A stretch of 64,000 nt of DNA from Candidatus Omnitrophota bacterium. GTDB taxonomy: Bacteria > Omnitrophota > Gorgyraeia > Duberdicusellales > 4484-171. The notes under the pieces were generated by a model. The model did not search any database. It saw nothing but the letters and a program-made list of their open reading frames with translations, and was not told the origin of the DNA. Location of the stretch: the NCBI GenBank assembly GCA_016935525.1, contig JAFGQU010000023.1, forward strand, positions 64,897 through 128,896, in the 5' to 3' direction. This document shows, piece after piece, positions 1,564-53,762 of the stretch. The translations under genes and the position numbers were made by a program. Position 1 is the stretch's first letter. Each line of letters opens with the position of its first letter.

Positions 1564-1574
1564 TATTTCCTCCT

Positions 1575-2063
1575 CTATTTTTTATAACTTCTCAGTATTT
1601 CTACCGCCTTTTTCGGCGTGAGTTCTCCGTACATCTTATCATCGACCATGATCACCGGCGCCAGGCCGCAGGCGCCCAAACATCTGGTCTCTCTCAACGA
1701 AAACAGATTATCCGGTGTCGTCTCTCCCACCGATATCTTCAATTCTTCTTTCACGGCATCCAATACCTTACCGGCACCTTTCACAAAACATGCCGTACCA
1801 AGACATACGTAAATAGTATGAGCTCCTTGAGGGGCGAGATTAAAATAATGGTAAAACGTCGCGACCCCCCAGATATGAGCGGTAGGGATATTCATCGTAG
1901 TCGCCACCTCATCCATGACTTCTTTGCTTAAATACCCGTAAAGCTGTTGAGCTTTGTGAAGTATCGCGATCAGACAAGATTCCGGATGGCTCTGTTTTTT
2001 GGTTTTCTCCATATATTCGATCAGTTCGTTTTTTCGCTCATCGACATGCGTATCCATGTTCAT
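1575..2063 (-). CDS. NuoE-like (24 kDa, thioredoxin-like [2Fe-2S]) subunit of a multimeric [FeFe] hydrogenase
   Basis: Shows the CxxxxC...CxxxC pattern (CLGTACFVKG ... CLGACGLAPVIMV) typical of NuoE, HndA and HydC. Confidence 0.85.
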   Translation of the reverse strand: MNMDTHVDERKNELIEYMEKTKKQSHPESCLIAILHKAQQLYGYLSKEVMDEVATTMNIPTAHIWGVATFYHYFNLAPQGAHTIYVCLGTACFVKGAGKVLDAVKEELKISVGETTPDNLFSLRETRCLGACGLAPVIMVDDKMYGELTPKKAVEILRSYKK

Positions 2064-2074
2064 CTCCTTCTCAA

Positions 2075-3856: not shown

Positions 3857-3868
3857 GATATTCCTCCT

Positions 3869-10635: not shown

Positions 10636-11702
10636 GGGGATACTCCTCTTCGGTTTCTTTATAATTCACTTTTGCTTCCAGGTCGCGCAGTTGTTTCGCG
10701 ATATCTTCGAATTCGCTTTTATAGGTCTTTCTTTGTTTCAACGAGTACCCTAAATAGAGGGTTAACGGGAATACTACAAACAGGCCGCCGGTAAGTATCT
10801 GTCCCGGGTATTCTGGAAAAATAAAAAAGGAAACGATAAATAACAGCCAGCACACGACATCAGTAATCCCCGTATACAGAAGGGCCCGGGGAGTACCGCT
10901 GATGATCCGTTTGCCGGCGATGAACAGGAACGGGGCCGGGAAAAATGCGGTCGTATATGTACGCGCCAGATAAATAGTAAGCCCGCAGGCTTCCCCCAGC
11001 ATATCGCAATATATCACTTTTGCCAGGCCGTAAAAAAAGAAGATACTTCCTACGCTGCCGATCAATATCGCGTATCCTCCGAAAAGGTTACCCCATATAT
11101 CGGGGGCATGGCTTCCTTCCAGATGCCTGAGCAGTTCTTCCTGTTTTTCCTTCTGCTTTTTCATGAACAAATGGATAGAATCGCCCGATATGTCCGAAAG
11201 GGTATCTTTCTTTTTCAAAAATTCGTCTAATATTTTTTGAGAACCATATATATATTTTAACAACCATCGTACGGCAAAAAAGAGCAGTACATACCAGGAA
11301 ACATTTCTTAAAAGGTATCCCAGATATATGATTGCTCTCTCGTATACCGTGCGCTCGGGATATCGCCCGAACGCATAGATATGGATTATGGCTAACACGA
11401 TGAAAACCGCAAGCAGTATCGTCTTTACAAACTTGTTGAAGGTAAGCCCGAAAGAAGCTCTCTCCAGAATACCTAACCCGGCGATCAAGAAAAACGGCCC
11501 CGGTAAAAAAAGGATAATCGCCGCGCATACGAACTTTTGCGTACATTCGCTGCCGGGCGAGAAGATCATCGCGCCCAGAGTGGTAAACAAGCCGTAACTA
11601 AAGAAAATCGTCCCGGCTGTGCCAATGATCACCTCTATCGTACCGGCGACCTTAAGTAATAACGGAGGAGATCCCTGGGTATTATGTGAAGGAGTGTTCA
11701 TG
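10625..11702 (-). CDS. Polytopic membrane protein of unknown function with an internal tandem duplication of a module of about 3 TM helices
   Basis: The two halves are alike: GTAGTIFFSYGLFTTLGAMIFSPGSECTQ...FLPGPFFLIAGLGILE versus GSVGSIFFFYGLAKVIYCDMLGEACGL...FFPAPFLFIAGKRIIS. The likely start MNTPSHN at 11702 overlaps the treY stop (ATGA). Confidence 0.5.
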
Positions 11703-14526
11703 GTCCAGTATTGATCAATACCGCAGCCGGAAAATGGGCACACAGATCTGCGACCAAAAGGGATTTCTCCGTCAGTCGGTCTTGGTGAGTGATGCAATCG
11801 GATAATGTCCCTTCGATCCCTTCCGGTAAAAAGACCGCGGTATCATCCCATATATTTGCCCCTAACGGCCAGGCGTCCGGGCCGACAAGACGGGTAGTAA
11901 ACCGGCTCGTCACGATAATCGCCCATTGCCCTTGATGTTTCCGGGCAAAAGCCACGATACATTCTTTATATTTACCTTCGGCCCGTAACGGAATATATTC
12001 GCCTTTTTCAAAAAGGTCAGGAAACCGGCGCCTTCGATTCAGGAGTTGATAGATAAGAAATAACTTTATTTTGCCGGTTGACGCCTCTTGCCTTAATCGG
12101 CCGATAAGACTATGGATATCTTCTTTAATCCCTTTTTCTATCTCATGTAAATACTGTATCCTTTTTGAAAAATCGACCGGCCGGCGGTTATCGGGATCGA
12201 CCAGGCTTAATTCCCATAATTCCGACCCCTGATAGAAGTCGCAGACGCCGGGCGCGGCCATCTTTATCGTGACTTGAGCGAGAGAATTCAACACGCCATA
12301 GTGAGCGATGACTTTATGAAACCTTAAAAAAGAAGGTAAAAACTGGTTCGCTTCATTATCTTCAAGAAGCGCATCGATAAAATTGAGGCATACCTCTTCA
12401 TATCCTTCATCGGGTTTTACCCAGGCGCTATGCACTTTCGCTTCTCTTACCGCTTTGATGATATACTCTTTTATCCGGCGCGAATAGCCGGCGATCTCCT
12501 CTGCCTCACAAGGGTAAGACCCTAACAGTGTCTGATAAATAAAATACTCATCGTTGGCGTCCGGCATATATTCACCGTCTATTTTGCGTTTTTTGGAACG
12601 GTTTATCTTACTCCAGGCATGCAGGTACCCTTTCCATTCGGTAAAGAGTTCGGATAATACGTTTATCCGGGCCCGTACGTCTTCGCCGCGTTTGGTATCA
12701 TGCGTGGCGGTCGCGTTCATCGAATGAAGCATATGTGTGCTGCGCCATTTGTTGAATTCATGAAATTCGCTTAACATGGTCCCGGCACTGTTCGGTTCGC
12801 CGCCGACTTCGTTAAGCGAGATCAATTTATGGTACGTATAAAACGTGGTATCTTCGAATCCTTTAGCCATGATCGGCGAAGTCATCTGCTGGAACCGCAT
12901 AATAAAATGCCAGAAATCCCGTTTTTCCTCGTCGGTCAACGAATCGATCAGCCTTAAAAGCAAAAAGTTCTCGATAAAGTTAAGTTCATATTCCAAAGCC
13001 GGGGCGCTCAAACGCGCTTTCTCGATCGCTTTTTTCATGTATACACGGTCTTTTCCTTCAAAATGCTCCTGATCGATATAGGTGCGGTATACCGGAAAAA
13101 AAGTCACTACCTCCACCAACGCCCGTTTCAAACCGTAAAGGGTAATATCCCGGCCGTAGCGGTTACGTCCGGCTACTTTTTTCATAAGATAGGCGAGGTT
13201 ATCGATATCGCCCGCCATATGTTTTCCGATAATAAGCCTTTTTTTCTCACTGACCAGACGTTCGTAAGAAGTATGGAAACCGGTAAATTTATAATATAGT
13301 TTCAGGAGGTTTTTGGCGTTTTTCGGCTGGCAGAATAATCCATTCAACCGGTTCATAAAATCATACCCGGTCGTACCCTGGATATCCCAGGTTTCGGGAA
13401 GATGTTCGCCGGATGCCGATATCTTTTCGACGACCGTATACACATCTTTCGTCTCAGCTTTTAACCGGGCAAGATAGGCGTTGGGATTATACAGGCCGTC
13501 AACATGATCGATACGTAATCCCTGGATCTTATCTTCTTTAATCAACCGCAAAATAAGTCCATGAGTATAATGGAACACGTTTTCTTTCTCTACTCTTAAA
13601 GAGATGATATCGTTCACCGTAAAAAATCTTCGGTAATTCAACTCCTCCGATGCCACTTTCCAGAACGACAAACGAAAACATTGTCTCGATAGCAGTTCAT
13701 CGAGCATCGTAATACTCTCATCGTTCCCGCCGGCGGCGTTGAAGAACGAGAGATTTCCATCGACAAAGGCCTTGATCTCATCATGGGACTGGATAAAATC
13801 CCACAGCAGCTTTTTCGCGTGCCGGATATAATCATATTTTATCTTATCATCATGCAGCGAGACTTCTTTGAAGGTATCGACTAATCCGTAAAATTGAATG
13901 ACCAGCTGATTGTTGGGGCCGATCTTGTTTTTTAGTCTTTCGATATCATGCAAAAAGACATATTCATACGTATTCAATAATAACGGGAACTCTAATTCGT
14001 AATAGATGACCTTTAATCCTGCTTCGCCATAGGCCAGCTGTATTTCCCCGCTCTCTAAGGCTTCGGAATAAAATTTCCCTAAAAACGGAGCCAGTACCCG
14101 GCCTTGAAAACTTTCATAAGGATGGACCCAGTCGATATCAAAAAAATCGTAGAAGCGGGAATGTTCTCTTTGTTCAAACACATCCATCAACATGTAATTT
14201 TCTTTACTATACGCCATATGGTTCGGGACGATATCCTGAAGCCAACTCATCCCTTTCCCGTTCAATACCGCGAAAAGCTCATTAAAAGCGGCCTCACCGC
14301 CGAGTTCGGGATTAATATGGGTAGGGTCGACCACGTCGTAACCGTGAGGGCTCCCCGGACGCGGGGTAAATATGGGTGACGCATAGATATGAGAGACTCC
14401 TAAGGCGTGAAGGTAAGAGACTATTCCTTTCGCCGCGGGAAACGTAAACCCTGAGTTAAATTGAATTCGATAGGTCGCGCTCGGTATACGCATATATTCA
14501 GCCGGTCCGTATCCTAAGATATTCAC
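11698..14526 (-). CDS. treY: Malto-oligosyltrehalose synthase (GH13)
   Basis: The N-terminus ATYRIQFNSGFTF...GVSHIYASPIF..PGSPHGYDVVDP is diagnostic of TreY, and the length (942 aa) fits. Confidence 0.85.
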   Translation of the reverse strand: MNILGYGPAEYMRIPSATYRIQFNSGFTFPAAKGIVSYLHALGVSHIYASPIFTPRPGSPHGYDVVDPTHINPELGGEAAFNELFAVLNGKGMSWLQDIVPNHMAYSKENYMLMDVFEQREHSRFYDFFDIDWVHPYESFQGRVLAPFLGKFYSEALESGEIQLAYGEAGLKVIYYELEFPLLLNTYEYVFLHDIERLKNKIGPNNQLVIQFYGLVDTFKEVSLHDDKIKYDYIRHAKKLLWDFIQSHDEIKAFVDGNLSFFNAAGGNDESITMLDELLSRQCFRLSFWKVASEELNYRRFFTVNDIISLRVEKENVFHYTHGLILRLIKEDKIQGLRIDHVDGLYNPNAYLARLKAETKDVYTVVEKISASGEHLPETWDIQGTTGYDFMNRLNGLFCQPKNAKNLLKLYYKFTGFHTSYERLVSEKKRLIIGKHMAGDIDNLAYLMKKVAGRNRYGRDITLYGLKRALVEVVTFFPVYRTYIDQEHFEGKDRVYMKKAIEKARLSAPALEYELNFIENFLLLRLIDSLTDEEKRDFWHFIMRFQQMTSPIMAKGFEDTTFYTYHKLISLNEVGGEPNSAGTMLSEFHEFNKWRSTHMLHSMNATATHDTKRGEDVRARINVLSELFTEWKGYLHAWSKINRSKKRKIDGEYMPDANDEYFIYQTLLGSYPCEAEEIAGYSRRIKEYIIKAVREAKVHSAWVKPDEGYEEVCLNFIDALLEDNEANQFLPSFLRFHKVIAHYGVLNSLAQVTIKMAAPGVCDFYQGSELWELSLVDPDNRRPVDFSKRIQYLHEIEKGIKEDIHSLIGRLRQEASTGKIKLFLIYQLLNRRRRFPDLFEKGEYIPLRAEGKYKECIVAFARKHQGQWAIIVTSRFTTRLVGPDAWPLGANIWDDTAVFLPEGIEGTLSDCITHQDRLTEKSLLVADLCAHFPAAVLINTGP

Positions 14527-16921
14527 CTAACGGATTAAAAGCGTCTAACCAGCCTTGAGCGGTTTTATCGTTCTGGTCTGCTTTCTCCTGCATCGTTTTG
14601 GCAAAATTCTTCTTTACCGAAAAATAAAGGTTTTGTACTTTCCAGAGGTTGATCGTCAATCCTAAAGGACCGAGCACATCAATCAATGACCGGACGATCT
14701 GCATCGGATAGATCTCCTGCGGAGACTTATAAAACTGTTTCATCAGCGTCTCGATCTTCTGACCTACCCGAAACCCCAAGGTCACCTTATCTACGGTAAG
14801 ATCCCATTCCTGGATATCGGCAATCAATCCTTTAAGCTTGGCGGAATCTAATTCGTCGTTATCGATACAATTCATCAGGTCGATATTGAATGTCGCCGAA
14901 AGCGTGCTGGCCAATATCGTAGGTAAAGGCATATTCAATTGTTTCAGTACCGAAAGTATCGGATAATGCTGGTCACTGATCTGTTTAAGCGAAGATTCGA
15001 TACCGGAGATCGTCGATGCGATGATCTGATAGAGGATCTTGCGTTGTTCGTCTTTAAACAAATGCCATAGAGTATAATGGACGTCGGGGAAAAACTGTTC
15101 GATCATCTTTAATGTCCCGGGGATATCGCCTTTCTCGAAAGACCCGCTGATTTCCTCTTTCATTTTTAAAAAATCTTCATGATCACGGGACGGCAATACT
15201 CCGCCGAAAAAGTTGTGGTCACCCAGATGCAGGACCGCGAAATCCACAGAAGTTTCTTCCTGCGTGATCTTTGAAAATATATCGGCTTTGCCGATGACAA
15301 GTCTGCTTTTACCGGATTCTTTCAGAATATATTCCTGATTCTTCACCGTATAACAATAAAGTGTCGTTACGTCTTGATGCTCGTTGAATAACGAAGATAT
15401 CGCGTAATGGGCGCCGACCCGGTTAAAGTCAAGGATGAACGGTTTCACGAAATATTCATAGGCGTATTTAGCGTTCCCGTACCGGGCGATATTACTGGGC
15501 ACTTTTTCCAGAAGAGTTATGAACGTCTCCTCCAGCGGCGCCCCGATAAGGTCATGGGCAAGCTGGATAGCTCTTGCGGCATAAAGAATGATCTGGACGG
15601 TCTCGATACCGCTCACCTCATCAAAAAACCATCCGCAACTGGTATACATCAGCATCGCCTGACGTTGCATCTCAAGCAGTTTTAGAGTTTTGATGCGTTC
15701 GGCTTTATTCAGTGGCCTGACCTGATGGGCCTTAAAAAACGCATCGATATTTTCCGGCGAACGGTCCAAAATCACGTCAATATACGCGTCACGCGCGCCC
15801 CAGGCATCTTTTACCAATGCCGTCATCTGTTCTTCATAGATATGTGCCAGATTATCGCGTAACCAATCAAGCGCGCCCCTGAGCGGCGCGCGCCACTCCT
15901 GGTTCCACTGGGGATGTCCTCCGGAATTACAACCGCAGTTGTTCCGCCAGCGTTCAATACCATGGATACAACTCCATGAAGAGTTTTCATAAATCTCTAC
16001 TTCAAACTGGGAAGGATGATTTTCAAGATATTCGCTATAAATAGTGATCCGGGCAAAATCATTATTGCGGATATAATCAATACAATAAGCCAGCCCCATA
16101 TCCCCGTCACGATGATGGTGCCCGTAGGTCTCGCCGTCGGTAGCGATATGGACCAACTGGTCTTCTTCGGACGATAAAAACACTCCTAATAACCGGCCGG
16201 CAAAATCTTCGCCTTTAGACAACAACCCTTCAAACGCTACGCCTTGTGAGACCGGGCCGTCATAGAAAAAAAGCGTGATCGCTCGACCGGAAGGTAACGC
16301 GCATTGGTAGGGATGACGCGGGTCTATTTTTGAACCGCTTATATCTTTCCAGCGTTTATCGCCGATCTTGCGCATCCGTTTTGCCTGGCGCGGAGCAAGA
16401 ATAGTAAACTTGATCCCGCAGGAAGCCAGCATATCCAGAGTCTCGATGTCGACCGCGGTCTCAGGCAGCCACATACCTTGAGGTTTCCTTTTAAACCGGT
16501 ATTCAAAATCTTTTATGCCCCATACTATCTGAGTATATTTGTCCCGCGATGTAGCCAGCGGCAGGATCATATGGTTATAACCTTGGGCTAATGCCGATCC
16601 GTGGCCGGAAAAATTTTTCTGGCTCTCTTTATCGGCGGAAAGGAGCGCCTGATACACTTCCGGCTCTTTTTTTGCCATCCAGGAAAGCAGGGTCGGTCCG
16701 AAATTAAAACTGATATTCGAGTAGTTGCTCATGATATCGGTGATCTTACCGCCTTCTCCCAAGATCCGGGCGGTAGAATTCGGCGCGTAACATTCGGCGG
16801 TGACCCGTTCGTTCCAGTCATGGTAAGGGTACGCCGAATCCTGCCGTTCGACTTCTTCTAACCAGGGATTTTCCCGCGGCGGTTGATAAAAATGCCCGTG
16901 AATACAGATATATTTATTCAT
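14498..16921 (-). CDS. Glycoside hydrolase family 57 protein with a long C-terminal (DUF3536-like) domain
   Basis: The N-terminal HGHFYQPPRE motif is the GH57 signature. At 807 aa it matches the GH57-plus-C-terminal-domain architecture. Confidence 0.7.
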   Translation of the reverse strand: MNKYICIHGHFYQPPRENPWLEEVERQDSAYPYHDWNERVTAECYAPNSTARILGEGGKITDIMSNYSNISFNFGPTLLSWMAKKEPEVYQALLSADKESQKNFSGHGSALAQGYNHMILPLATSRDKYTQIVWGIKDFEYRFKRKPQGMWLPETAVDIETLDMLASCGIKFTILAPRQAKRMRKIGDKRWKDISGSKIDPRHPYQCALPSGRAITLFFYDGPVSQGVAFEGLLSKGEDFAGRLLGVFLSSEEDQLVHIATDGETYGHHHRDGDMGLAYCIDYIRNNDFARITIYSEYLENHPSQFEVEIYENSSWSCIHGIERWRNNCGCNSGGHPQWNQEWRAPLRGALDWLRDNLAHIYEEQMTALVKDAWGARDAYIDVILDRSPENIDAFFKAHQVRPLNKAERIKTLKLLEMQRQAMLMYTSCGWFFDEVSGIETVQIILYAARAIQLAHDLIGAPLEETFITLLEKVPSNIARYGNAKYAYEYFVKPFILDFNRVGAHYAISSLFNEHQDVTTLYCYTVKNQEYILKESGKSRLVIGKADIFSKITQEETSVDFAVLHLGDHNFFGGVLPSRDHEDFLKMKEEISGSFEKGDIPGTLKMIEQFFPDVHYTLWHLFKDEQRKILYQIIASTISGIESSLKQISDQHYPILSVLKQLNMPLPTILASTLSATFNIDLMNCIDNDELDSAKLKGLIADIQEWDLTVDKVTLGFRVGQKIETLMKQFYKSPQEIYPMQIVRSLIDVLGPLGLTINLWKVQNLYFSVKKNFAKTMQEKADQNDKTAQGWLDAFNPLGEYLRIRTG

Positions 16922-18747
16922 TTTGAGACCTCGGTTTTATAGACGACGAGACTTAAAGGGTTCATCGTCACATTTCCTCCGGATTCGACCGTTTCCGGCG
17001 ATACCGAACCCGGACCTTGCCACTTTTGATGAGAAGAATCAAGAATACACGTCATCCTTCCGGTTACATTATCGCACGGATATACCTCTTCGTTTGAAGA
17101 AAAATTCATAAGAGTAATCGTTTCACTGCTCTTTGAGTTCCGAATAAGCGCCATTACCTCCGGTGAAGCACAACAGGTTTTAATCCCTTCCCGGCTCGAT
17201 TCAGCAAACGCGGCGACAGTTTTACGTAACCTTATCAGTTCCTGATAAAAAGAAAACATGACCGCGTGTTGACCTCGCGCGACTTCTTCCCATTTCAGTT
17301 TCGATAAGTTAAACGTCGCTTCGCTCTGCGGATCCGGCGGTTCGGCTTGCCAACCGAAAGAAGCGAATTCTTTTTTACGTCCGGTACGTACCGCTTCGAC
17401 TAATTGAGTATCGAGATGGCTGATAAAATAAAGGAAGGGGCTGGATGAGGCGAACTCTTCACCCATAAACAACATCGGGATATAAGGAGAAAGGATCATA
17501 CATCCGGCGGCAAGTTTTAACGCTTCAAAATCCACAAGGTGCCCTATACGCTTCCCTTCGATACGGTTTCCGACCTGATCGTGATTCTGGATAAATACAA
17601 TAAACTTATCCGGGGCGATGTCGCGGGAAGAACTGCCGAAATATTTTTTCCGGCAGCAAGAATAATCCCAAGAATACACAAACCCTTCCCGCTCACATTT
17701 CTCCAACTGTTCGAGTCTTCCGAAATCGGCGTAATAGCCCGCGGATTCTTTAGTAAGTAATGTACGTAACGAATGATGAAAATCATCGAGCCATTGAGCG
17801 TCTATGGCGTAGCCGCCTTTTTCTTTTTCTCGGACTACCCGTACGTCGTTAAGATCACTTTCGGCGATGAGATAACACTTTCTTTTCTGTTTTCGGGAAA
17901 ACTCTTCGACTCTTTCAGCCATCTCTTCTAAGATATGTTTCGCGCCGAAATCGTAAATACCGTGTATCGCGTCAAGCCTGAGGACGTCGATATGGTAATA
18001 CTTAAACCAATACAACGCGTTTTCGATAAAATAATCTCTCACTTTATCGCTCATCGCACTGTCAAAATTCACCGCTTTTCCCCAGGGTGTCCGGTATCGG
18101 TCGGTAAAGTACGGGCCGAAATCAGACAAATAATTCCCCTCCGGTCCCAGATGGTTATAGACCACATCAAGGATCACGGCAAACCCGGCACAATGGGCTT
18201 TATCGATAAACTTCTTGAGATTTTCCGGGCCGCCGTAAGAGTTTTGAACACTGAACGGATAAACCCCGTCATAGCCCCAATTACGCTCACCCGGGAACTG
18301 TGAAACCGGCATGATCTCAATAGTATTGATCCCCAGTTGTTTAAAATGGTCGAATTTACCGAGGATCGCTCCGAATGTGCCTTCGGGAGTAAAGGTTCCT
18401 ACGTGCAATTCATAGATAATCATCTCAGAAACGGCAATCCCTTCCCACCCCTGATCGTTCCAAGAAAAACTATTATGATCGATAATACCCGACGGGTTAT
18501 GGACCCCTTCGGGCTGAAAACTTGATACCGGGTCCGGCCGATCTATCCGGCCGTCGAGTACATACACATACGTACTTTCCGGAGAGATCCCCCCGCTTTG
18601 GGCGTGCCAGTAACCGCGGTCATCTTTTTCCATCGGGATAATACGTTCAGAAGGTGAGATTATTTTGAGAGCGACCGAATCACGCTGGGGAGCCCACACG
18701 CACCACTGACACTGCCCGTTACCTGAATAATGAGCGCCTATTCGCAT
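16918..18747 (-). CDS. treZ: Malto-oligosyltrehalose trehalohydrolase (GH13)
   Basis: N-terminal E-set domain, GH13 catalytic regions (GFAVILDVVYNH, LRLDAIHGIYD) and a length typical of TreZ. Confidence 0.85.
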   Translation of the reverse strand: MRIGAHYSGNGQCQWCVWAPQRDSVALKIISPSERIIPMEKDDRGYWHAQSGGISPESTYVYVLDGRIDRPDPVSSFQPEGVHNPSGIIDHNSFSWNDQGWEGIAVSEMIIYELHVGTFTPEGTFGAILGKFDHFKQLGINTIEIMPVSQFPGERNWGYDGVYPFSVQNSYGGPENLKKFIDKAHCAGFAVILDVVYNHLGPEGNYLSDFGPYFTDRYRTPWGKAVNFDSAMSDKVRDYFIENALYWFKYYHIDVLRLDAIHGIYDFGAKHILEEMAERVEEFSRKQKRKCYLIAESDLNDVRVVREKEKGGYAIDAQWLDDFHHSLRTLLTKESAGYYADFGRLEQLEKCEREGFVYSWDYSCCRKKYFGSSSRDIAPDKFIVFIQNHDQVGNRIEGKRIGHLVDFEALKLAAGCMILSPYIPMLFMGEEFASSSPFLYFISHLDTQLVEAVRTGRKKEFASFGWQAEPPDPQSEATFNLSKLKWEEVARGQHAVMFSFYQELIRLRKTVAAFAESSREGIKTCCASPEVMALIRNSKSSETITLMNFSSNEEVYPCDNVTGRMTCILDSSHQKWQGPGSVSPETVESGGNVTMNPLSLVVYKTEVSK

Positions 18748-20678
18748 GAAGTTTTCGGTTGATACTTGAAAAAAACTGCCGCAAGCGGCGGAACGGTTAT
18801 GGAAAGAGAATAATGCCCGCCAGGCAAAGGTTCAACGGATGATTCCACTCCCCCTAAATTACCCTGGCCACTGCCGCCATATTCTTTCGCGTCACTATTG
18901 AGCATTTCTTTCCAGTATCCTCCGCAGGGAACACGCAGGGTATACCCGGAATGAGGTACGGGAGTAAAATTACATACGACCAGTATCGGCGGACTTTCCG
19001 AGAGCGGCTTACGGATGAAACTCAACACACTGCGTTGCCAGTCATGGCAGTCGATCCACTGGAATCCTTCGTGATGAAAATCATTTTCATACAGTGCCGG
19101 CTCATTTTTATAGAAAGCATTCAGTTCTCTGACCCAGCGCTGCAGGTCCCGGTGCGGGGCATACTCTAACACATACCATTCCAGTTCCTTTTCGTGGTTC
19201 CATTCGGCCCGCTGGCCGAATTCCTGGCCCATAAACATAAGTTTCTTGCCGGGATGGCCGTACATATACCCGTACAGCAGCCGCATATTGGCGAATTTCT
19301 GCCAATCATCTCCGGGCATTTTATTTACCAGGGAACCTTTTCCGTGGACGACTTCATCATGAGAAAAAGGAAGCATAAAATTTTCGGTGAAAGCATACAG
19401 CATACTGAACGTAAGTTCGCCATGATGATGCTTACGGTAAAGCGGATCTTGAGAAAAATACGCCAACGTATCATGCATCCAGCCCATATTCCATTTCATC
19501 CCAAACCCCAGACCTCCATCCGACGTCGGCCGCGATACGAGCGGCCAGGCGGTCGATTCTTCAGCGATCATCTGCACATCGGGATATTTTTCATATACCA
19601 CTTCGTTAAGACGGCGCAGAAAATCTATCGCTTCGATATTTTCCCTGCCGCCATACCGGTTAGGCACCCATTCTCCGTTATTCCGGGAATAATCAAGATA
19701 CAACATCGATGCGACCGCGTCGACTCTTAATCCGTCGATATGATATTTATCAAACCAGAACAACGCGCTGGAAATAAGGAAACTGCGCACTTCGGTACGT
19801 CCATAATTAAAAATATAACTTTTCCAGTCGGGATGGAACCCTTTGCGGCGATCGGCATGTTCATAGAGATGGGTACCGTCGAAATAGACAAGCCCGTGGC
19901 CGTCGGATACGAAATGCGAAGGGACCCAGTCAAAGATCACGCCGAACCCGTTCTCGTGAAGTTTATCGATGAGATACATCAACTCCTGCGGCGTACCATA
20001 GCGGCTCGTTGCCGCGAAATACCCGATGATCTGATATCCCCAGGACCCATAGAACGGATGTTCCATAAGCGGAAGGAATTCCACATGAGTATAGCCCATA
20101 TCTTTTAAATAACGGATAAGTTCAGAGGCCATTTCGCGGTAAGTTAAAGAGCAGTTATGTTCCTCATGACGTTTACGCCAGGACCCGAAATGTATCTCAT
20201 AGATAGAAATCGGCGCTCCGGACGCGTTCTTTTTACGGCGATTCCTCATCCAGCGGGCATCCTGCCACTGGTAATCAAGCCCCCAGACGACCGAAGCCGT
20301 CTGAGGCGGGACTTCTGAAAAAAAAGCAAACGGATCGGTCTTATCGGTACGGTAATCATTGTGCTGTGAAACGATATGATATTTATAGACCTCGCCGGAG
20401 CCGATACCGGGGATAAATCCTTCCCAAATGCCGGAGGCGTCGTCACGGATACTAAGCGGGTGAGCCTGGTCGTTCCATTGGTTAAAATTCCCGATGACAC
20501 TGACCGATTTGGCATTAGGAGCCCACACGGCAAAATACGTACCCGCTATTCCGTCATGAGTGATGAGATGCGCGCCCATCTTGTCATAAAGACGGGCCTG
20601 GTTCCCTTCCCGGAAAAGATACACATCTTCCGGAGAGAATAAACTTACTCCTGACATTACCTGTCCGATCTGAGCCAT
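18738..20678 (-). CDS. glgB: 1,4-alpha-glucan branching enzyme (GH13)
   Basis: Conserved regions GFGVIFDWVPSHF, GLRVDAVASMLY and EESTAWP. Confidence 0.9.
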   Translation of the reverse strand: MAQIGQVMSGVSLFSPEDVYLFREGNQARLYDKMGAHLITHDGIAGTYFAVWAPNAKSVSVIGNFNQWNDQAHPLSIRDDASGIWEGFIPGIGSGEVYKYHIVSQHNDYRTDKTDPFAFFSEVPPQTASVVWGLDYQWQDARWMRNRRKKNASGAPISIYEIHFGSWRKRHEEHNCSLTYREMASELIRYLKDMGYTHVEFLPLMEHPFYGSWGYQIIGYFAATSRYGTPQELMYLIDKLHENGFGVIFDWVPSHFVSDGHGLVYFDGTHLYEHADRRKGFHPDWKSYIFNYGRTEVRSFLISSALFWFDKYHIDGLRVDAVASMLYLDYSRNNGEWVPNRYGGRENIEAIDFLRRLNEVVYEKYPDVQMIAEESTAWPLVSRPTSDGGLGFGMKWNMGWMHDTLAYFSQDPLYRKHHHGELTFSMLYAFTENFMLPFSHDEVVHGKGSLVNKMPGDDWQKFANMRLLYGYMYGHPGKKLMFMGQEFGQRAEWNHEKELEWYVLEYAPHRDLQRWVRELNAFYKNEPALYENDFHHEGFQWIDCHDWQRSVLSFIRKPLSESPPILVVCNFTPVPHSGYTLRVPCGGYWKEMLNSDAKEYGGSGQGNLGGVESSVEPLPGGHYSLSITVPPLAAVFFKYQPKTSCE

Positions 20679-20878
20679 AAATGACTTTCGCGTGAGCCGG
20701 ATTTTACTTTAATGACTATAGTTAAAATGCGAAAAAGTTGATATCTATAAAATAATATTTTCTTCAGCAGTGAAACGCACGACAGTATCGAGGAATGGGT
20801 GGACCTAAAAAAGGCCTTATGTATTTATTATTTTAACACGTTTAAGGCAGTTCACAAGGAAGTTTTACGGCAACTGGC

Positions 20879-21463
20879 CTAGAGACGGATAAGGTAAAGG
20901 ATTCCTTTACGCACAAGCATTACCGCGATTGCCGCTAAAAGAAGGCTGGTGATCTTAGAAAGGACTTTCGCGCCCGAAACACCGATTATTTTGATCAATA
21001 CCCGGGATAACGAAAAAATTATTCCGGCCAAACACACATTTACCGCGACCGACCATAACGTGACCATCACTCCGTATTGGCCGATAAGGATCAACGAAGT
21101 AGTAAGTACCGCCGGCCCGACAATAAGCGGAGTACCCAGGGGGACCGCTCCTAATTCCTGAGAAGGAATGCGGCGTTTTTTTCCGGGAATGACCATATCG
21201 ATGATCGCGATACAAAACAGGACTATTCCTCCGGCGATCATAAAATCACCCATAGTAATACCCAAAAACCCGAATACCGCCTGCCCGATAAACACAAAAC
21301 CGATCGCGACCAGAAGCGCCGTCACTACCGACTGCATGATCACCCGTATCTTTTTTCGGGGATCCAACCCCTGGGTAAGCGAGATGAAAATCGGTAACAC
21401 CCCCACCGCATCGACTGCGACAAAAATCGGGATAAACGCGAGCAAAAACTTTTCAACTGACAT
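20879..21463 (-). CDS. MarC family (UPF0056) integral membrane protein
   Basis: 194 aa, six hydrophobic helices, and the N-terminus FIPIFVAVDAVGVLPIF typical of MarC/YhgN. Confidence 0.75.
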   Translation of the reverse strand: MSVEKFLLAFIPIFVAVDAVGVLPIFISLTQGLDPRKKIRVIMQSVVTALLVAIGFVFIGQAVFGFLGITMGDFMIAGGIVLFCIAIIDMVIPGKKRRIPSQELGAVPLGTPLIVGPAVLTTSLILIGQYGVMVTLWSVAVNVCLAGIIFSLSRVLIKIIGVSGAKVLSKITSLLLAAIAVMLVRKGILYLIRL

Positions 21464-21478
21464 GTAAAATCCTTTCTT

Positions 21479-21639
21479 TATTCGGCCCTATCACGGATCG
21501 CTTTCACTCTCAAAGGATCTACGCTGACGATCTCCAGTAACGCTTCGCATTCGGCGCAATGGAACGTATCGGATGCTTCTAAATCCGATTCCAGATTAAA
21601 CTCTTCCGCGCAGACCGGACATTTTATCTTCGCTATCAT
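21479..21639 (-). CDS. Small 53-aa zinc-ribbon protein resembling LysW/ArgW amino-group carrier proteins. It is absent from the ORF track.
   Basis: Manual reverse-strand translation gives MIAKIKCPVCAEEFNLESDLEASDTFHCAECEALLEIVSVDPLRVKAIRDRAE*. It has a CPxC...CxxC zinc ribbon and an ECEALLEIVSVDPLRV segment closely matching LysW CEDCGAELEVVGLDPLRL, and it ends in a C-terminal Glu. An AGGAGG lies 3 nt before the ATG. Confidence 0.55.
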
Positions 21640-21683
21640 AGGCCTCCTTTATTCGAGAACATTTATTTTTTACCTGCTCTCGG

Positions 21684-22160
21684 TTATATCCCGTGAGTAC
21701 GGATCTTTTTATAAAAAATGACTAAATCGTCACCGGCCCCATAAAAATCCGGGATGATCCCGCTCTGAATAAACCCGCGCTTCCGGTAGAAATCGCAGGC
21801 GATCGCGTATTCTCTGCGGGTAGAAGTCTCAACGCGAATAAGCGCTTCACTCGTACAAGTCAAAATAAACTCTTCCGCCCGCTGCATCATCTTTTTCCCG
21901 AGCCCCTTACCGTGATACTTTTTATCGACGATGAGCCAGTAAATATCCCAGGTAGATCGAGTCATAGGGGTCTGGCCAAAAAGAAGAAAACCGGCGGGCC
22001 CGGAGCCTTGCGGTATTTCTTCATGAATAAGCCGGTAATTCACATCGGGTTTTGCAAAACAATCTTCCAAAAGTTCCCGCAATACCACGCACTCTTCGGG
22101 ATGGAATATACCGGTGCTTCGGGCAATATCTATATATCGTTCGACTGTCGTCTCTACCAT
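21684..22160 (-). CDS. GNAT family N-acetyltransferase
   Basis: 158 aa with an acetyl-CoA binding motif of the form HGKGLGKKMMQRAEEF (Q/RxxGxG/A). Confidence 0.75.
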   Translation of the reverse strand: MVETTVERYIDIARSTGIFHPEECVVLRELLEDCFAKPDVNYRLIHEEIPQGSGPAGFLLFGQTPMTRSTWDIYWLIVDKKYHGKGLGKKMMQRAEEFILTCTSEALIRVETSTRREYAIACDFYRKRGFIQSGIIPDFYGAGDDLVIFYKKIRTHGI

Positions 22161-23221
22161 ATTCTCTTTTTGCGGTAATGACGCAAAGCCATCGCGATCA
22201 ATCTGGTAATAAATTCTTCGTAACGATACCCTTTATGGTATACCTGCCGCAGCAGGCCGCTGTCCCGGTTGATATCGGGATTAGGATTCACATCCAGCAC
22301 AAACAGTTTTTCCCGGCGTTGGCGGATATCGACGCGAAAATATCCCCGTCCTCTCACGAGACCCCCTACCCGCTGGCAGATATCGTATAACTGTTTTTTC
22401 ACCGTTTTAGAGATGATCTCGGTCACCTCCGGCACGATCGCATGGTATTGGACCGAATCGATGTTCCACTTGGCGTCATACGTAAGAAAAGGCGAAAAAT
22501 CCGTATACCGCTCATAATCGATCACCGAAATCCCCAGGACTTCATAGGGGTAGTTTCCCATCATACCTACGTTATATTCTTTTCCGGGAATAAATTCTTC
22601 GATAAGCACCCCTGAAGGAAATTCTGATAATTTTTTTTCGGCTTTTTTTAAAAGTTCCCGGGAACTCCACACCAACGAATCATTATCAATACCTACGCTG
22701 GCGTCTTCGGAGGCGGGTTTTATGAAAAAAGGCGGCTCGATAGTAACCCGGTCAATATCTTCGATATTGCGGATCAAATATCCTTTGGGAACGGAAATCT
22801 CGTTCTCTTCCAACAAAGCCTTCAGAACGGATTTATTCAGACATTTCTCAAGAGTATAGGCTGAATTTCCGGTAAACGGAATATCCATTTTTTCCAACTG
22901 AGCGGCAAATTCGGCTTCTTTTTGCGGTTGGTCACCGAACCCTTCGAATAGATTGAACACACAAAAAGCCTTCATTGCCTCCAACATATCCCTGATGTTT
23001 TGCGGGCCGTAAAAATCCTCTTTACTTACCCTGAGCGTCTCGACAGTATAGTTTCTCGCCCGTAAAGATTCTTCAACCGCATCCCGGCACCGTAACGCAT
23101 CTATGACGTCTCTGCGGGCGACATCATCCTTTGCGATAGCGATGACTATCCGCTTCTCTTTTTTGTTCATATTTTTAGTCAGGAAAAACTTCAGGTATCG
23201 TAAGAAGAACCGGTCTCCCAC
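22154..23221 (-). CDS. ATP-grasp ligase (D-Ala-D-Ala ligase / RimK-LysX-like fold)
   Basis: FFIKPASEDASVGI, VLIEEFIPGKEY and RGYFRVDIRQRREKLFVLDVNPNPDI match ATP-grasp B- and C-domain motifs. The true start may be MNKKEKR near 23170. Confidence 0.7.
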   Translation of the reverse strand: MGDRFFLRYLKFFLTKNMNKKEKRIVIAIAKDDVARRDVIDALRCRDAVEESLRARNYTVETLRVSKEDFYGPQNIRDMLEAMKAFCVFNLFEGFGDQPQKEAEFAAQLEKMDIPFTGNSAYTLEKCLNKSVLKALLEENEISVPKGYLIRNIEDIDRVTIEPPFFIKPASEDASVGIDNDSLVWSSRELLKKAEKKLSEFPSGVLIEEFIPGKEYNVGMMGNYPYEVLGISVIDYERYTDFSPFLTYDAKWNIDSVQYHAIVPEVTEIISKTVKKQLYDICQRVGGLVRGRGYFRVDIRQRREKLFVLDVNPNPDINRDSGLLRQVYHKGYRYEEFITRLIAMALRHYRKKRIW

Positions 23222-25428
23222 CGAAAACCGTACCGCGTAAATGCCGCCTTAAGCAACATCCTTACCAGTTGCCGGTAACTCCCTCCGTGTAAACGGTAAA
23301 GGATAGGCAAATCGCTGTAGAGCGGCGAGAGCCCCGGTAACGGATTGATATCGATGACCTTAGGGACATTATCCTTATCCAGGCGAAAATCGATACGGGC
23401 GATATCGCGTAATTCCAGCGCCGAAAAAGCTTTTAACGCATATTCGACCACCCGGGCCCGGACTTCTTCGGCGATGGCATCCTGCGGGTAATACGCCACG
23501 GCTTTTTGCCATTGCCGTTTATTCTCGATAGAATAAATAAACGGGTCATTACTTGCCTGTCGCGGCCCGATTTTCATCATCCCGATCACACGGGCGTCAT
23601 GGCCGTTACCGCATATTCCGACGGTGATCTCATCGTGAGGCAGAAATTCTTCAATAAGTACCGGCTGGCGGTATTGCGCAAGAAGAGCTGTCCCTTGCAT
23701 TTTTAATTGAGCGAAATCACGCACCAGAGATTTTGAGAAGATCCCTTTAGAAGAGCCCTCCCACCGGGGTTTCATGATAAAGCTCTGATACGTAAGGAAA
23801 ATATTTTCTAACGAATCGATCTCCTCAGGACGGGAAACCATATACATACCGGGAACCGGTATCCGGGCCTGAGACAGAAAGGCGTGAGTCAGGTATTTAT
23901 CCAGGCTCACCCCCAAAGCGATCGGATCCGAACCGGAATAAGGGATCTTGAGCGCTTCTAACATCGCCGGCACCTGCGATTCACGGCTACGGGTATTACC
24001 GATACCTTCGGTAATATTCAGTATGAAATCCGGCCGGTGGGCTTTTATTTTTTCTACGAAGTTTTCCGCCTGCTCGAACAACAGGGTTTTAACCCCGCAG
24101 TGTTCGATCTCTTTTTTTAATTGTTCGATCGTCTCGATCTCGTCATACTCTTCTTCGTCATCATCGACCTTATCGTTTCGCTTCAGGTTAAAGGCGATAC
24201 CCACGGTGTTTACCTTGATCTTTTTCAGCGGCGCGCGGACTTGACGGGAATTTTCGGGATTATAGTAAAAAAATGGTTCCCCTTTATAATTTTCAAGGAC
24301 GATACCCTGCGGAGACGCCGATACCAGGTAGTTCGGCCCTAACGGCACTTTCCCTTTACCGTCGATGCCATCGACGACGAAGGTCGGGATACACATGCCG
24401 CTGGTATATCCGCGTAGATGCTTCAGGATATCTATCCCTTTTTCTACCGACGTACGAAAATGCCAGGTCCCCAGTACCGGGTCGCATTGGAAAAGATAAT
24501 AAGGCCTTACCCGTATCGCCTGAAGCTTCTGACAGAGTTCACGCATTACGTGAGGATCATCGTTTATCCCTTTCAGAAGGACCGACTGGTTACTGAGCGG
24601 GATACCGCACCTCTGCAGTCTCTGACAGGCTTGAGCGGCAGATTCGGTCACCTCGCGCGGATGATTAAACTGTATGTTCACCCATAACTTCTCATATTTT
24701 TTAAGCGTACGGCAAAGGTACTCATCGATCCTTTGCGGAAGTACTACCGGCGCGCGGGTCCCGATACGGATGACTTCTATATGCGGTATTGATGAGACCA
24801 TATCCAGGATATGGTCAAGCCGGGCGGTCGCCAGCGTCAACGGGTCTCCTCCGGATACGATGATCTCTCTGATCTCGGCATGGCTCTTTACATATTCCAG
24901 GGCACCCGCGATATCATGTAACGTCGGCTCGCTCGTTTTTTCCCGCCATAGACGTTTACGCGTACAATGACGGCAATACATGAAGCATCTTCCCGTTACC
25001 AATAATAGCGCCCGGTCCGGATAACGATGCACCAGATACGGATTAGGGGAAGTTTTTTCTTCTCCTAACGGATCGATCGTCTCGTGAGTCTCATCCATGA
25101 GCTCTTCCGGCGCGGGAATACATTGGCGGCGGATGGGATCGGCAGGATCATAATGGGTTTCGATCAAAGAAAAATAATATTGGGTAGTACGCATATGGTA
25201 TACCTGTTCGACTTCTTTTAACCGGGTATACTCCTGGGGGCAGACCATAAGCAGGTCTGCAACGTCATCTATCGATTTAAACGAGTGCCGGGATGCGGCC
25301 TGCCAATTTTTATCCTGTACGACAAGGTCCTTACATCCTCCAGGTTCCTCTTCTGATTTTCGCTCAACGTTCATGGTCACGTCTCCTTTACTTTTTACGA
25401 TCTGTCCGGTCACACGTCTCTTTAACAT
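23191..25428 (-). CDS. Fusion protein: N-terminal KamA-family radical SAM aminomutase (lysine 2,3-aminomutase-like), C-terminal ATP-grasp ligase
   Basis: The first roughly 400 aa contain the radical SAM CFMYCRHCTRKR motif and the PLP/Zn regions of KamA (NPYLVHRYPDRALLLVTGRC...). The C-terminal roughly 330 aa show ATP-grasp motifs (MKPRWEGSSKGI, IEEFLPHDEITVGICGNG, ARIDFRLDKDNVPKVIDINPLPG). The better start is probably MNVERK at 25374, where AAGGAG lies 9 nt upstream. Confidence 0.75.
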   Translation of the reverse strand: MLKRRVTGQIVKSKGDVTMNVERKSEEEPGGCKDLVVQDKNWQAASRHSFKSIDDVADLLMVCPQEYTRLKEVEQVYHMRTTQYYFSLIETHYDPADPIRRQCIPAPEELMDETHETIDPLGEEKTSPNPYLVHRYPDRALLLVTGRCFMYCRHCTRKRLWREKTSEPTLHDIAGALEYVKSHAEIREIIVSGGDPLTLATARLDHILDMVSSIPHIEVIRIGTRAPVVLPQRIDEYLCRTLKKYEKLWVNIQFNHPREVTESAAQACQRLQRCGIPLSNQSVLLKGINDDPHVMRELCQKLQAIRVRPYYLFQCDPVLGTWHFRTSVEKGIDILKHLRGYTSGMCIPTFVVDGIDGKGKVPLGPNYLVSASPQGIVLENYKGEPFFYYNPENSRQVRAPLKKIKVNTVGIAFNLKRNDKVDDDEEEYDEIETIEQLKKEIEHCGVKTLLFEQAENFVEKIKAHRPDFILNITEGIGNTRSRESQVPAMLEALKIPYSGSDPIALGVSLDKYLTHAFLSQARIPVPGMYMVSRPEEIDSLENIFLTYQSFIMKPRWEGSSKGIFSKSLVRDFAQLKMQGTALLAQYRQPVLIEEFLPHDEITVGICGNGHDARVIGMMKIGPRQASNDPFIYSIENKRQWQKAVAYYPQDAIAEEVRARVVEYALKAFSALELRDIARIDFRLDKDNVPKVIDINPLPGLSPLYSDLPILYRLHGGSYRQLVRMLLKAAFTRYGFRWETGSSYDT

Positions 25429-25559
25429 AAAATCACCCCGATAGCTTTTTCGTAAAAAAATCTAAAGAATATTTTCTTTCTATTTTTATTTTGGAAATCA
25501 TTTCACACAACGACGGAGGCTCGTCGCCGGCCGGATGATGTTCATCTTCACTGCCGAGA

Positions 25560-25934
25560 TTATGGATTGGCATTGTGCACCTCATTGGCCGGGGAGGGAC
25601 GTTCATTTTTTATTTTTTCCAACATCACCCGGTCGTTCTGCAGTTGTTCGAATGAGGAAAATTGGGAAAAGAAAAAATCGAGGATCTTTTTCTGTTCGTT
25701 CTCTATATTTTTATGGAGACTGTAATACATACTGTTCCCTTCCCGGCGGTCCGAGACGATTTTAAGTAATCTTAACCGGACCAGATGCCGGGAGATCACC
25801 GGCTGACTGATTCGGAGTATTGCCTGTATTTCTTTTACCATCAGCGGTTCGTTATTCATCAGAAGAAAAACTATTCTTAACCGTGTATCATCGGCCAGAG
25901 TCTTTAAGAATTGCCGGAATGATTTAATATCCAT
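25560..25934 (-). CDS. ArsR/SmtB family transcriptional regulator
   Basis: HTH LADDTRLRIVFLLMNNEPLMVKEIQAILRISQPVISRHL. It sits at the head of the KamA cluster. Confidence 0.8.
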   Translation of the reverse strand: MDIKSFRQFLKTLADDTRLRIVFLLMNNEPLMVKEIQAILRISQPVISRHLVRLRLLKIVSDRREGNSMYYSLHKNIENEQKKILDFFFSQFSSFEQLQNDRVMLEKIKNERPSPANEVHNANP

Positions 25935-26119
25935 ATTTGCTTATCTGTATATATCAATATCCCTATATATCAATTAAAGTATATACTATTTATCCTTTAT
26001 TTGTCAATATTTTTTTCATCTATTTTTTAAAAAATATACCCTCTACCGGAAAGGATCGGCCTGATGAGTATGAGGTAAATAGCTGACATAGATGGGGAAA
26101 ATTGGCCACAAATAAGGCG

Positions 26120-26160
26120 GGAAAAAAACAGCCGGAAAGGACTTTTTAGCCCTTTCCGGC
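26120..26160 (-). terminator. Rho-independent terminator downstream of flagellin
   Basis: On the minus strand, stem GCCGGAAAGG/CCTTTCCGGC followed by TGTTTTTTT. Confidence 0.7.
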
Positions 26161-26167
26161 ATAATTG

Positions 26168-26995
26168 CTATAATGATTGCAGTAATCCCAGCGCGAGACT
26201 CTGGGCACTATTGGCCTGGACTAACGCCGAAATCCCTGCCTGCACGATGATCTGCTGATTGGTCAAGTTGGTAGTTTCCTGTGCCAGATCAGCATTAATG
26301 ATCCGGCTCTTCGCCGCGGTCAAATTCTCAACTAACGCATCCTGCGCATCAGCACTCTTGGTAAACGCGTTACCTTGAGCACCAACCTGTGCGATTACCT
26401 GTCCGATTGCCGAGAACGCGTTAGAAAGAGCCTGTAACGCAGACGAAGCTGCGCCCTGCGAGGTAATAGATGTTGCGGAAATCGCAAGTCCACCACCACC
26501 ATAGGTCAACGCGCCGATCTGGATCGTAACATTATTAGCGGTACCTTCACCGACACGGATCGATACCGTCATCCCACCGGCTAACAGAGTCTGGTCTAAA
26601 AATTTGGTATTCAGAGCCAATCTCTGCATTTCCGGAAGGATCCGGGAATATTCCTCATTGAGCAAGCCGCGTTCGGAATCACTCAAGAGCCCGTTCATCG
26701 CATCAGACGCTAACTGATACAACCGTTCCAGATCTTCGACCATAATCGTCAAATAACTATCTGCGGTGTTAATAAGATCAAGTCCTAACTTTAAAGAATT
26801 AGAACCTGATTGCCAAGCGGTGATACTTTTCCCCAAACGAGCCGCTAATAAAAGCCCGGCCGGGTCATCTTTTGCGTTGTTAATTCTTTTCCCGGAAGCA
26901 AGTCGTTCCAGAGTAGTGTTGAGACCTCTCTGTTGTATACCCAGCTGCCGCTGGGCAGTCATCGATGGGATGTTACTTCTTATGTACAATGGCAT
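26168..26995 (-). CDS. fliC: Flagellin (short, 275 aa)
   Basis: Conserved N-terminus (AQRQLG...LERLASGKRINNAKDDPAG) and C-terminus (LTNQQIIVQAGISALVQANSAQSLALGLL) flagellin domains. Confidence 0.9.
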   Translation of the reverse strand: MPLYIRSNIPSMTAQRQLGIQQRGLNTTLERLASGKRINNAKDDPAGLLLAARLGKSITAWQSGSNSLKLGLDLINTADSYLTIMVEDLERLYQLASDAMNGLLSDSERGLLNEEYSRILPEMQRLALNTKFLDQTLLAGGMTVSIRVGEGTANNVTIQIGALTYGGGGLAISATSITSQGAASSALQALSNAFSAIGQVIAQVGAQGNAFTKSADAQDALVENLTAAKSRIINADLAQETTNLTNQQIIVQAGISALVQANSAQSLALGLLQSL

Positions 26996-50048: not shown

Positions 50049-50054
50049 AGCTCA

Positions 50055-50145
50055 CGCACGTCACAAAGTCACAAGGTCACATAGTCACAGGTTGAAGAGA
50101 GATTTTTCTCCCCACGTGTGACGTGTGACATGTGTCGTGTGACCT
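50055..50145. repeat. GTCACA-family composite element between dnaK and dnaJ (four GTCACANN units facing four TGTGAC units)
   Basis: GTCACAaaGTCACAagGTCACAtaGTCACAgg-N21-cacgTGTGACgTGTGACaTGTGTCgTGTGACc. The left arm is identical to 52222-52253. Confidence 0.75.
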
Positions 50146-50148
50146 TTT

Positions 50149-52053
<1,905 letters not shown>

Positions 52054-53663: not shown

Positions 53664-53691
53664 ATCATCACCTTCATCTGCCGCGCACGCT

Positions 53692-53718: not shown

Positions 53719-53720
53719 GT

Positions 53721-53749: not shown

Positions 53750-53762
53750 GGAATAATGAATC

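Follow-up and report, generated by a model that had tools for sequence, protein, structure and literature searches.

A predicted LysW-like zinc-ribbon protein encoded in an apparent KamA–ATP-grasp operon of a Candidatus Omnitrophota bacterium

Introduction

Amino-group carrier proteins (AmCPs) of the LysW type possess zinc-binding Cys residues and a C-terminal EDWGE sequence, the last Glu of which serves as the attachment site (PMC10433800, PMC11726168). The LysX or ArgX ligase reads EDWGE through its GSWGR motif (PMC10433800), and a flexible acidic tail and an acidic surface dock the AmCPs on basic patches of their partner enzymes (PMC11726168). Known AmCP clusters contain LysZ/Y/J/K-type enzymes, with an aminotransferase in each; those for vazabitide A, ficellomycin, and azinomycin, as well as the ser2 cluster of Serratia, always keep LysX/Z/Y/J-type machinery, and the AmCPs of secondary metabolism are very acidic (pI about 4) and are loaded at the C-terminus (PMC11726168). 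Here, we examine a small open reading frame (ORF) in a 64,000-nt stretch of DNA from a Candidatus Omnitrophota bacterium (contig JAFGQU010000023.1; this whole stretch is hereafter called the window). It encodes a 53-aa protein, which we assign from sequence to a LysW-like subfamily, as a divergent member; the subfamily occurs mainly in Omnitrophota and is linked to a cluster of genes for a lysine 2,3-aminomutase-like protein (KamA) and ATP-grasp ligases resembling D-Ala-D-Ala ligase (Ddl), usually with a GNAT-family N-acetyltransferase. Does such a protein function similarly to the described LysW-type carriers?

Two further systems bear on the neighboring genes. In the AblA/AblB pathway, a lysine 2,3-aminomutase and an acetyltransferase produce the osmolyte N-epsilon-acetyl-beta-lysine; in the Ngg system, a GNAT and an ATP-grasp protein synthesize N-acetylglutaminylglutamine amide. 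The window cluster is like the former in joining an aminomutase to an acetyltransferase and like the latter in joining ATP-grasp to GNAT, as for an acetylated peptide osmolyte, and trehalose genes lie adjacent to it. It is unlike AblA/AblB in that its KamA domain falls below the cutoff of the AblA equivalog model (443.9 vs. 525.4), its GNAT has no match to the AblB model, and its two extra ligases have no counterpart there.

Results and Discussion

A small gene with the predicted fold of LysW

The ORF occupies positions 21478..21639 of the window on the minus strand, with its ATG at 21639 (the first start codon downstream of an in-frame stop) and its TAA stop at 21480-21478. The 53 codons translate to MIAKIKCPVCAEEFNLESDLEASDTFHCAECEALLEIVSVDPLRVKAIRDRAE, exactly as given in a preliminary description of this DNA that was made from the letters alone. 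As that description had it, the ORF sits between the genes for GNAT and a MarC-family transporter. It shares their strand, begins 44 nt past the GNAT stop, and ends 14 nt ahead of the MarC start. An AGGAGG had also been reported directly upstream, and this Shine-Dalgarno-like sequence can be read at 21643..21648 on the minus strand (GGAGG core, 21647-21643), 3 nt (CCT) before the ATG, which is an unusually short spacer. The ORF had been presented as a missed one. It is indeed a real 53-aa ORF that was absent from the ORF track then used, which had a floor of 60 aa; public annotation, however, already contains an identical protein (P0001, [quoted passage not shown]) from an Omnitrophica metagenome-assembled genome. 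An independent Logan contig (L003) is 100% identical to the window across 5128 nt.

Judged by sequence models, the protein’s match to the LysW family is far above chance level. Alignment against the Pfam LysW family had been proposed as a check, and PF21344 (Zn_ribbon_LysW) matched residues 6-46 with 36.5 bits, above its gathering cutoff of 27 (E = 3.7e-9). A leave-one-out profile, built from 14 syntenic orthologs with the window sequence excluded, picked out this protein alone (63.1 bits, E = 5.7e-19) when compared with every window ORF of 30 aa or more. When PDB sequences were searched with phmmer, the LysW proteins of Thermus (3wwl, E = 1.6e-5) and Thermococcus (5k2m) were matched. The preliminary description had recognized two zinc-ribbon Cys pairs and LysW’s E-x-E-x-x-L-E-V-V-x-x-D-P-L-R block, and rightly so: the CxxC...CxxC pairs align with Thermus LysW, as does the C-x-x-C-x-A-x-L-E-[IV]-V-x-x-D-P-L-R block (LEVV..DPLR in the window protein). 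The four Cys residues (C7, C10, C28, and C31) are invariant in 46 relatives, and the hydrophobic core is intact; the nearly invariant Gly23 is Ser in the window copy.

An AlphaFold2 model calculated from the 46 relatives has five strands and a mean pLDDT of 80. The best six Foldseek matches of this model in the PDB were all LysW chains (TM 0.73-0.76, probability 1.00). Sequence and model agree in predicting a Cys4 zinc ribbon of the LysW fold. Its ribbon domain is acidic, and the pI of the whole protein is 4.56, vs. 4.05 for Thermus LysW. The protein is thus like LysW/ArgW of Thermus thermophilus, Sulfolobus, and Thermococcus (3wwl, 3vpb, 5k2m) in its length of ~53 aa, its Cys4 ribbon and five-strand fold, its shared sequence block, its acidic globular domain, and the adjacency of an ATP-grasp ligase gene.

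Because the Pfam score exceeds its cutoff, the leave-one-out profile finds the protein, and the gaps of 44 and 14 nt are as tight as in an operon, we conclude that the small ORF is a real and probably co-transcribed gene.

The C-terminus and the neighboring ligases differ from those of LysW systems

The preliminary description had taken the terminal Glu for the gamma-carboxyl attachment point and the ending RDRAE for the tail of a divergent carrier. Comparison with LysW/ArgW supported neither proposal. The protein scored below the cutoffs of both curated models, TIGR01206 (lysW; 31.4 vs. 53.2) and NF041070 (carrier_LysW_Arch; 21.6 vs. 75). In the alignment to 3wwl, its final Glu lies opposite LysW Glu50, and the chain terminates four residues ahead of the attachment residue, Glu54; the stop comes before DWGE, and the EDWGE end is absent from the 53-aa protein. 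The stretch that follows the ribbon, RVKAIRDRAE, has four basic and two acidic residues, and the free tail of ~6 residues is net basic. The median net tail charge of the relatives is -9.

Homologs with a conserved C-terminal Glu, for which the preliminary description had asked, were essentially not found. Of 31 relatives from the gene-context subgroup, 15 end in Phe, seven in Tyr, and only two in Glu, with EEF and DEY the commonest ends; of the 56 nearest single-ribbon relatives, 11 terminate in Glu. In the window protein, 17% of the residues are Glu, so its occurrence at the very end is weak evidence for a carrier.

The ligases point in the same direction. Both ATP-grasp domains of the operon fit best to the Dala_Dala_lig_C and Ddl models (Pfam, NCBIfam), and a PDB sequence search with the ATP-grasp part returned Ddl-type ligase chains only. 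A LysX/RimK-like identity was not borne out for either domain; both are, by sequence, D-Ala-D-Ala-ligase-like. GSWGR, or even WG, occurs in none of the operon proteins. In the window, LysZ/Y/J/K-like enzymes were found neither in the operon nor among 36 further ORFs that were scanned, and domain-model scans of the operon turned up no releasing hydrolase. The small protein resembles the AmCPs of secondary metabolism in being a small acidic LysW-like protein recruited into a biosynthetic cluster beyond primary lysine/arginine synthesis, and differs from them in that the LysX/Z/Y/J machinery and the aminotransferase were not found in the window operon.

Relatives of the 53-aa protein and their tails

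Scanned exhaustively with HMMER, 1.84 billion representatives yielded 107 matches at E <= 1e-3, only two of which end in EDWGE. The nearest single-ribbon relatives have long tails rich in Asp, Glu, and Tyr, with varied last residues. A profile made from the syntenic orthologs collected 74 proteins. Nearly all that are named come from Omnitrophota, and many had received the name LysW automatically. Nearest to the window protein are P0245, P0002, P0011, and P0232, at 50-55% identity.

The Omnitrophota LysW-like proteins (P0002, P0229-P0255) carry Asp/Glu-rich tails of 20-30 residues that end in EEF, DEY, or DEF. Such a long, acidic, aromatic-ended tail is typical of the subfamily and is absent from the window copy, which has a basic tail of 10 residues. 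Tail loss has a precedent: P0027, a tail-less relative of 46 aa, retains the standard gene context. The ribbon shares 54% identity with its nearest relative, and the neighboring ATP-grasp enzyme no more than 50% with its own. The pace of change in the small ORF is thus no higher than in the adjacent enzyme, which argues for purifying selection.

Many other LysW-fold proteins (P0256-P0293; e.g., P0282, P0260, and P0268) bear acidic tails that are very long and whose last residues read EDWK, EAW, EDYP, or GAYS. It seems to be general in the LysW-fold superfamily that an aromatic residue occupies the C-terminus or a position close to it (compare EDWGE). The context of P0282, the only one of this set that was seen, has no lysine-pathway genes.

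The LysW-like gene across related loci

The organization of related loci was studied in two independent samplings. The first comprised 80 loci from species-representative genomes that were anchored on the stand-alone ATP-grasp gene (Grasp2) and annotated locally, 56 of which had sufficient flanking sequence for presence counts; the second comprised eight loci anchored on the close subgroup of the small protein. The core order KamA – ATP-grasp – ATP-grasp – GNAT (window 21684-25428, minus strand; L004-L083 and L093) recurs in Omnitrophota, Synergistota, and Chloroflexota/Dehalococcoidia, and in single genomes of Thermodesulfobacteriota and Spirochaetota. In some genomes, as in the window, KamA and the first ligase form one fused protein. 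A LysW-like gene is present in 12 of the 56 loci and absent from 44 (Omnitrophota, 9/19; Synergistota, 0/19; Chloroflexota, 0/9). The small gene is dispensable for the core cluster.

Where it occurs in the ATP-grasp-anchored loci, the LysW-like gene lies upstream of KamA and never past GNAT. The preliminary description had allowed that the ORF might be simply a spacer between MarC and GNAT in related genomes. This was half seen: in six Dehalococcoidales loci, MarC directly follows GNAT across a gap of 3-46 nt that holds no ORF, and the window ORF itself is a real gene.

In all eight loci of the second sampling, the LysW-like gene is directly followed by a gene for a signal-peptide protein of ~125-140 aa that has its own acidic, Tyr-rich tail and whose start codon often overlaps the stop codon of the LysW-like gene (L001 3040-3393, L006 7164-7577, L012 1974-2381, L026 7327-7704, L084 7238-7654, L089 2611-3051, and others). 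This ~135-aa protein matched no Pfam family. In the same sampling, an ArsR gene lies upstream in five of the eight loci, and KamA or a KamA::ATP-grasp fusion lies downstream in five of the six with a continuing contig. Many related loci have an ArsR-type regulator ahead of KamA or the LysW-like gene; it stands directly before KamA, with no LysW-like gene between, in L053, L071, and the window. Two loci have unusual neighbors: L084 has the order TreT – ArsR – LysW-like – 135-aa protein beside a two-component system with no KamA nearby, and L088 has MscS and GH65 beside its LysW-like and KamA genes.

The window protein is thus like the Omnitrophota LysW-like subfamily in sequence (up to 55% identity), phylum, and linkage to KamA, Ddl-like ATP-grasp, and ArsR genes; it is unlike the subfamily in that it lacks the acidic tail, the position before KamA, and the secreted partner. 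Among ~95 loci, its copy is unique in position, in having no tail, and in having no 135-aa partner. In the Grasp2 tree, the window branches within a clade in which the LysW-like gene is common. In L093, whose ATP-grasp protein is nearest to that of the window (50% identity), the core stands bare, with no LysW-like gene. Inheritance followed by relocation and tail loss is the simplest history. A metagenome scan with the window protein found no relative; one with the nearest ATP-grasp relative found one locus, which lacks the gene.

Several further features of these loci were observed. In LysW-like loci, a PIG-L-family deacetylase of ~435 aa with a signal peptide often lies between the ATP-grasp genes, and GNAT is usually missing (L005 8624-9994, L007 8685-9992, L015 4459-5961, L025 5057-6364, L032 8600-9907). 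The PIG-L and GNAT variants suggest a switch between acetylation and deacetylation among cluster forms, and the former point to extracytoplasmic chemistry. In several loci (L005 5182-5406, L011 7141-7374, L015 548-760, and L091 186-356), the gene immediately upstream of the LysW-like one encodes a small DUF2934 protein, which replaces or accompanies ArsR. An LD-carboxypeptidase (Peptidase_S66) and a 340-aa gene without a family lie beside a LysW-like gene ending in Glu (L044 3269-5642, minus strand), and an S66 peptidase follows KamA – ATP-grasp at L085 9872-10819; a link to peptide trimming or cell-wall chemistry is possible. Longer LysW-like proteins of 97-110 aa with an EYPEVYNE tail segment (L086 7001-8275, L090 3124-4841) form a more distant subgroup, whose genes adjoin a radical-SAM gene of 289 aa along with two polyphosphate genes, Ppx and PPK, a context unlike that of the KamA-linked subgroup.

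Unrelated Cys4 ORFs were considered as functional analogues in lineages that lack the LysW-like gene and were rejected, since they are sporadic and do not resemble a conserved analogue. Those in seven Synergistota loci (L018 8048-8284 on the minus strand, L021, L024, L027, L028, L030, and L034) form a conserved family that is on the opposite strand and confined to one subclade; those in three Dehalococcoidia loci vary in position, and a different ORF (L065 7392-7607) abuts KamA in a Dehalococcoidales locus.

The window operon and its surroundings

Domain models identified the gene content of the window operon, which bears out the preliminary description in placing the ORF inside a KamA/ATP-grasp operon. 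All of its members are on the minus strand. The first gene encodes an ArsR/SmtB-type regulator (25560..25934). A promoter-like TTGACA-18-TATACT lies upstream of it (25978..26007, minus strand; 11/12, a consensus match only), and a strong terminator (26160..26131, minus strand) lies just before this site. Next come a 745-aa fusion of a KamA domain with the second Ddl-like ATP-grasp domain (“GraspF”; 23191..25428), the stand-alone Ddl-like ATP-grasp protein Grasp2 (22154..23221; the NCBI start at ~23170 gives 338 aa), and the 158-aa GNAT (21684..22160), the conserved last gene of the core cluster. The small ORF follows, and then a MarC/NAAT-family membrane transporter (20879..21463; PF01914, 113 bits; TIGR00427, 98.2 vs. 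99.2). The genes upstream of the small ORF abut or overlap each other. Since the promoter-like site precedes ArsR and no convincing terminator was found between the operon genes, the small ORF appears to be fifth among the six genes of one operon.

Neither a second LysW-like copy nor a homolog of the secreted ~135-aa protein was found in the window. A sub-threshold PrrB/RsmZ RNA element (24073-24185, minus strand; 22.4 vs. 44 bits) was discarded, as it lies within the KamA coding sequence and is most likely a chance match; Rfam gave no other matches in 20700-26300.

Directly downstream of MarC is a trehalose/glycogen block of GlgB, TreZ, GH57/DUF3536, and TreY (11698-20678, minus strand). Farther away, the minus strand of the window holds genes for a group A6 [FeFe] hydrogenase, including a NuoF-like subunit, and for the maturase HydF (325-6037), as well as a heat-shock block of DnaJ, DnaK, HrcA, and ClpB (48930-56956).

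The putative pathway

The KamA domain aligns with the lysine 2,3-aminomutase of Clostridium (2A5H, E = 1.9e-107) and keeps Asp293 (QCD) and Asp330 (FVVD), which in that enzyme hold the epsilon-ammonium of lysine. The retention of both residues suggests that the window enzyme takes free lysine and yields beta-lysine; the partner of the small protein would be, unlike that of LysW/ArgW, an aminomutase that acts on free lysine. From the gene content, it is most likely that the cluster turns lysine into beta-lysine, which is then ligated into a small peptide-like product and N-acetylated. The two Ddl-type ligases together with GNAT and MarC/NAAT suggest an acetylated, beta-lysine-containing small peptide. 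TreY, TreZ, GlgB, and GH57 in the window, TreT in L084, and MscS and GH65 in L088 hint at osmoadaptation, and the metabolite may be an osmolyte.

What does the small protein do?

To the 53-aa protein we would assign the role of a non-covalent accessory subunit of this beta-lysine-derived pathway; we infer the chemistry of the pathway, the partner, and the role, and we regard the proposal as having about an even chance of being right. In it, KamA would convert lysine to beta-lysine, the ATP-grasp ligases would build the latter into a small peptide-like product, GNAT would N-acetylate that product, and MarC would transport either substrate or product through the membrane. The acidic ribbon would dock on a cluster enzyme, most plausibly an ATP-grasp ligase, as the globular domain of LysW docks on its partners, and would carry no substrate on its C-terminal Glu. 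The charges of the enzymes bear on the choice of partner. In loci that encode an acidic-tail protein, both ATP-grasp domains have a net positive charge; in Omnitrophota loci lacking one, their net charge is negative (p = 0.006 and 0.02). The charge of KamA shows no difference between such loci. This lends weak support to ATP-grasp as the putative docking partner.

Several considerations weigh against this proposal. In the tree, the charge correlation is largely driven by one subclade, and its p values are not corrected for phylogeny. The docking is hypothetical and the cluster product putative; a literature search found no paper on the aminomutase–ligase cluster. The tightest genetic partner of the subfamily is secreted, so no cytoplasmic complex with it is possible, and L084 holds ArsR, the LysW-like gene, and the 135-aa gene with no KamA nearby. 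The Shine-Dalgarno spacing of the window gene is short. Finally, the uniqueness of the window copy in position and tail means that inference from its relatives may not transfer to it.

The L084 locus also bears on a second explanation: the zinc ribbon, with ArsR or as part of an ArsR – LysW-like – secreted-protein module, would control expression of the cluster and stand outside its chemistry. The presence of ArsR directly upstream of the LysW-like gene in many loci accords with this idea, as do the adjacency of the L084 triad to TreT and a two-component system and the recurrence of osmolyte-related neighbors (TreY/TreZ in the window; MscS and GH65 in L088). We nonetheless consider such a regulatory or signaling role unlikely. 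The loci in which ArsR directly precedes KamA (the window, L053, and L071) show ArsR to be independent of the LysW-like gene, several LysW-like loci have a DUF2934 protein or no regulator upstream, and the window gene sits at the operon end, far from ArsR.

Could the protein still be a covalent amino-group carrier? An ATP-grasp enzyme would then join the amino group of lysine or beta-lysine to the gamma-carboxyl of Glu53, and other enzymes would act on the tethered substrate. The LysW fold and predicted zinc site, the ATP-grasp ligases of the shared operon, the overall acidity (pI 4.56), and the terminal Glu of the window copy all suit a carrier. The C-terminus does not: it stops at the position of Glu50 without DWGE, its short free tail is net basic, and its Glu, one of many in the protein, is replaced by Phe or Tyr in 22 of the 31 gene-context relatives. 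Nor do the scores under both curated cutoffs, the Ddl-type ligases without GSWGR, the failure to find LysZ/Y/J/K or a releasing hydrolase in the operon, or the retention by KamA of the two Asp residues that imply a free lysine substrate. Because the core is complete without the gene in most lineages (44 of the 56 loci), the terminal Glu is not conserved, and neither ligase is of the LysX type, we judge a carrier role in the manner of LysW to be unsupported and also unlikely.

The peculiarities of the window copy admit another explanation, that it is a decaying remnant: a truncated, displaced leftover of an ancestral upstream gene, still open and no longer functional. Its solitary position among ~95 loci, its missing tail and missing 135-aa partner, the change of Gly23 to Ser, the short Shine-Dalgarno spacing, and the lack of such a gene in L093 all speak for a remnant. 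The four Cys residues and the hydrophobic core are intact, however, the fold prediction is confident, the spacing is operon-tight, and P0027 shows that a tail-less form exists independently. Moreover, its 54% identity to relatives matches the ~50% of the enzymes, which is unexpected for neutral sequence at such divergence. We thus find decay quite improbable.

A modified form of the carrier idea would make the Omnitrophota LysW-like proteins a second class of carriers, in which a Ddl-type ATP-grasp enzyme loads lysine or beta-lysine on the C-terminal carboxylate and the peptide is assembled on the tether. In most members, loading would take place at the alpha-carboxylate of the C-terminal Phe or Tyr, and in the window copy at the Glu. 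Both the existence of such a class and this choice of group seem to us quite doubtful.

[quoted passage not shown]

Implications

The database name “lysine biosynthesis protein LysW”, borne by the window protein and dozens of its relatives, is, to go by their sequences, misleading: the window protein has the LysW fold outside the LysW pathway and without the LysW tail. The LysW-like subfamily is tied to an uncharacterized cluster that spans at least three major phyla, and the cluster constitutes a defined target for a new beta-lysine-derived metabolite. Were the protein covalently loaded, it would represent a new carrier–ligase pairing; were loading of the Ddl type to occur, carrier-protein amino-acid chemistry would be extended to a new ligase family and pathway. 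If it is a docking or regulatory subunit, the LysW fold would have been reused without its carrier chemistry, and the tail-less window copy offers a natural experiment on the lone ribbon domain.

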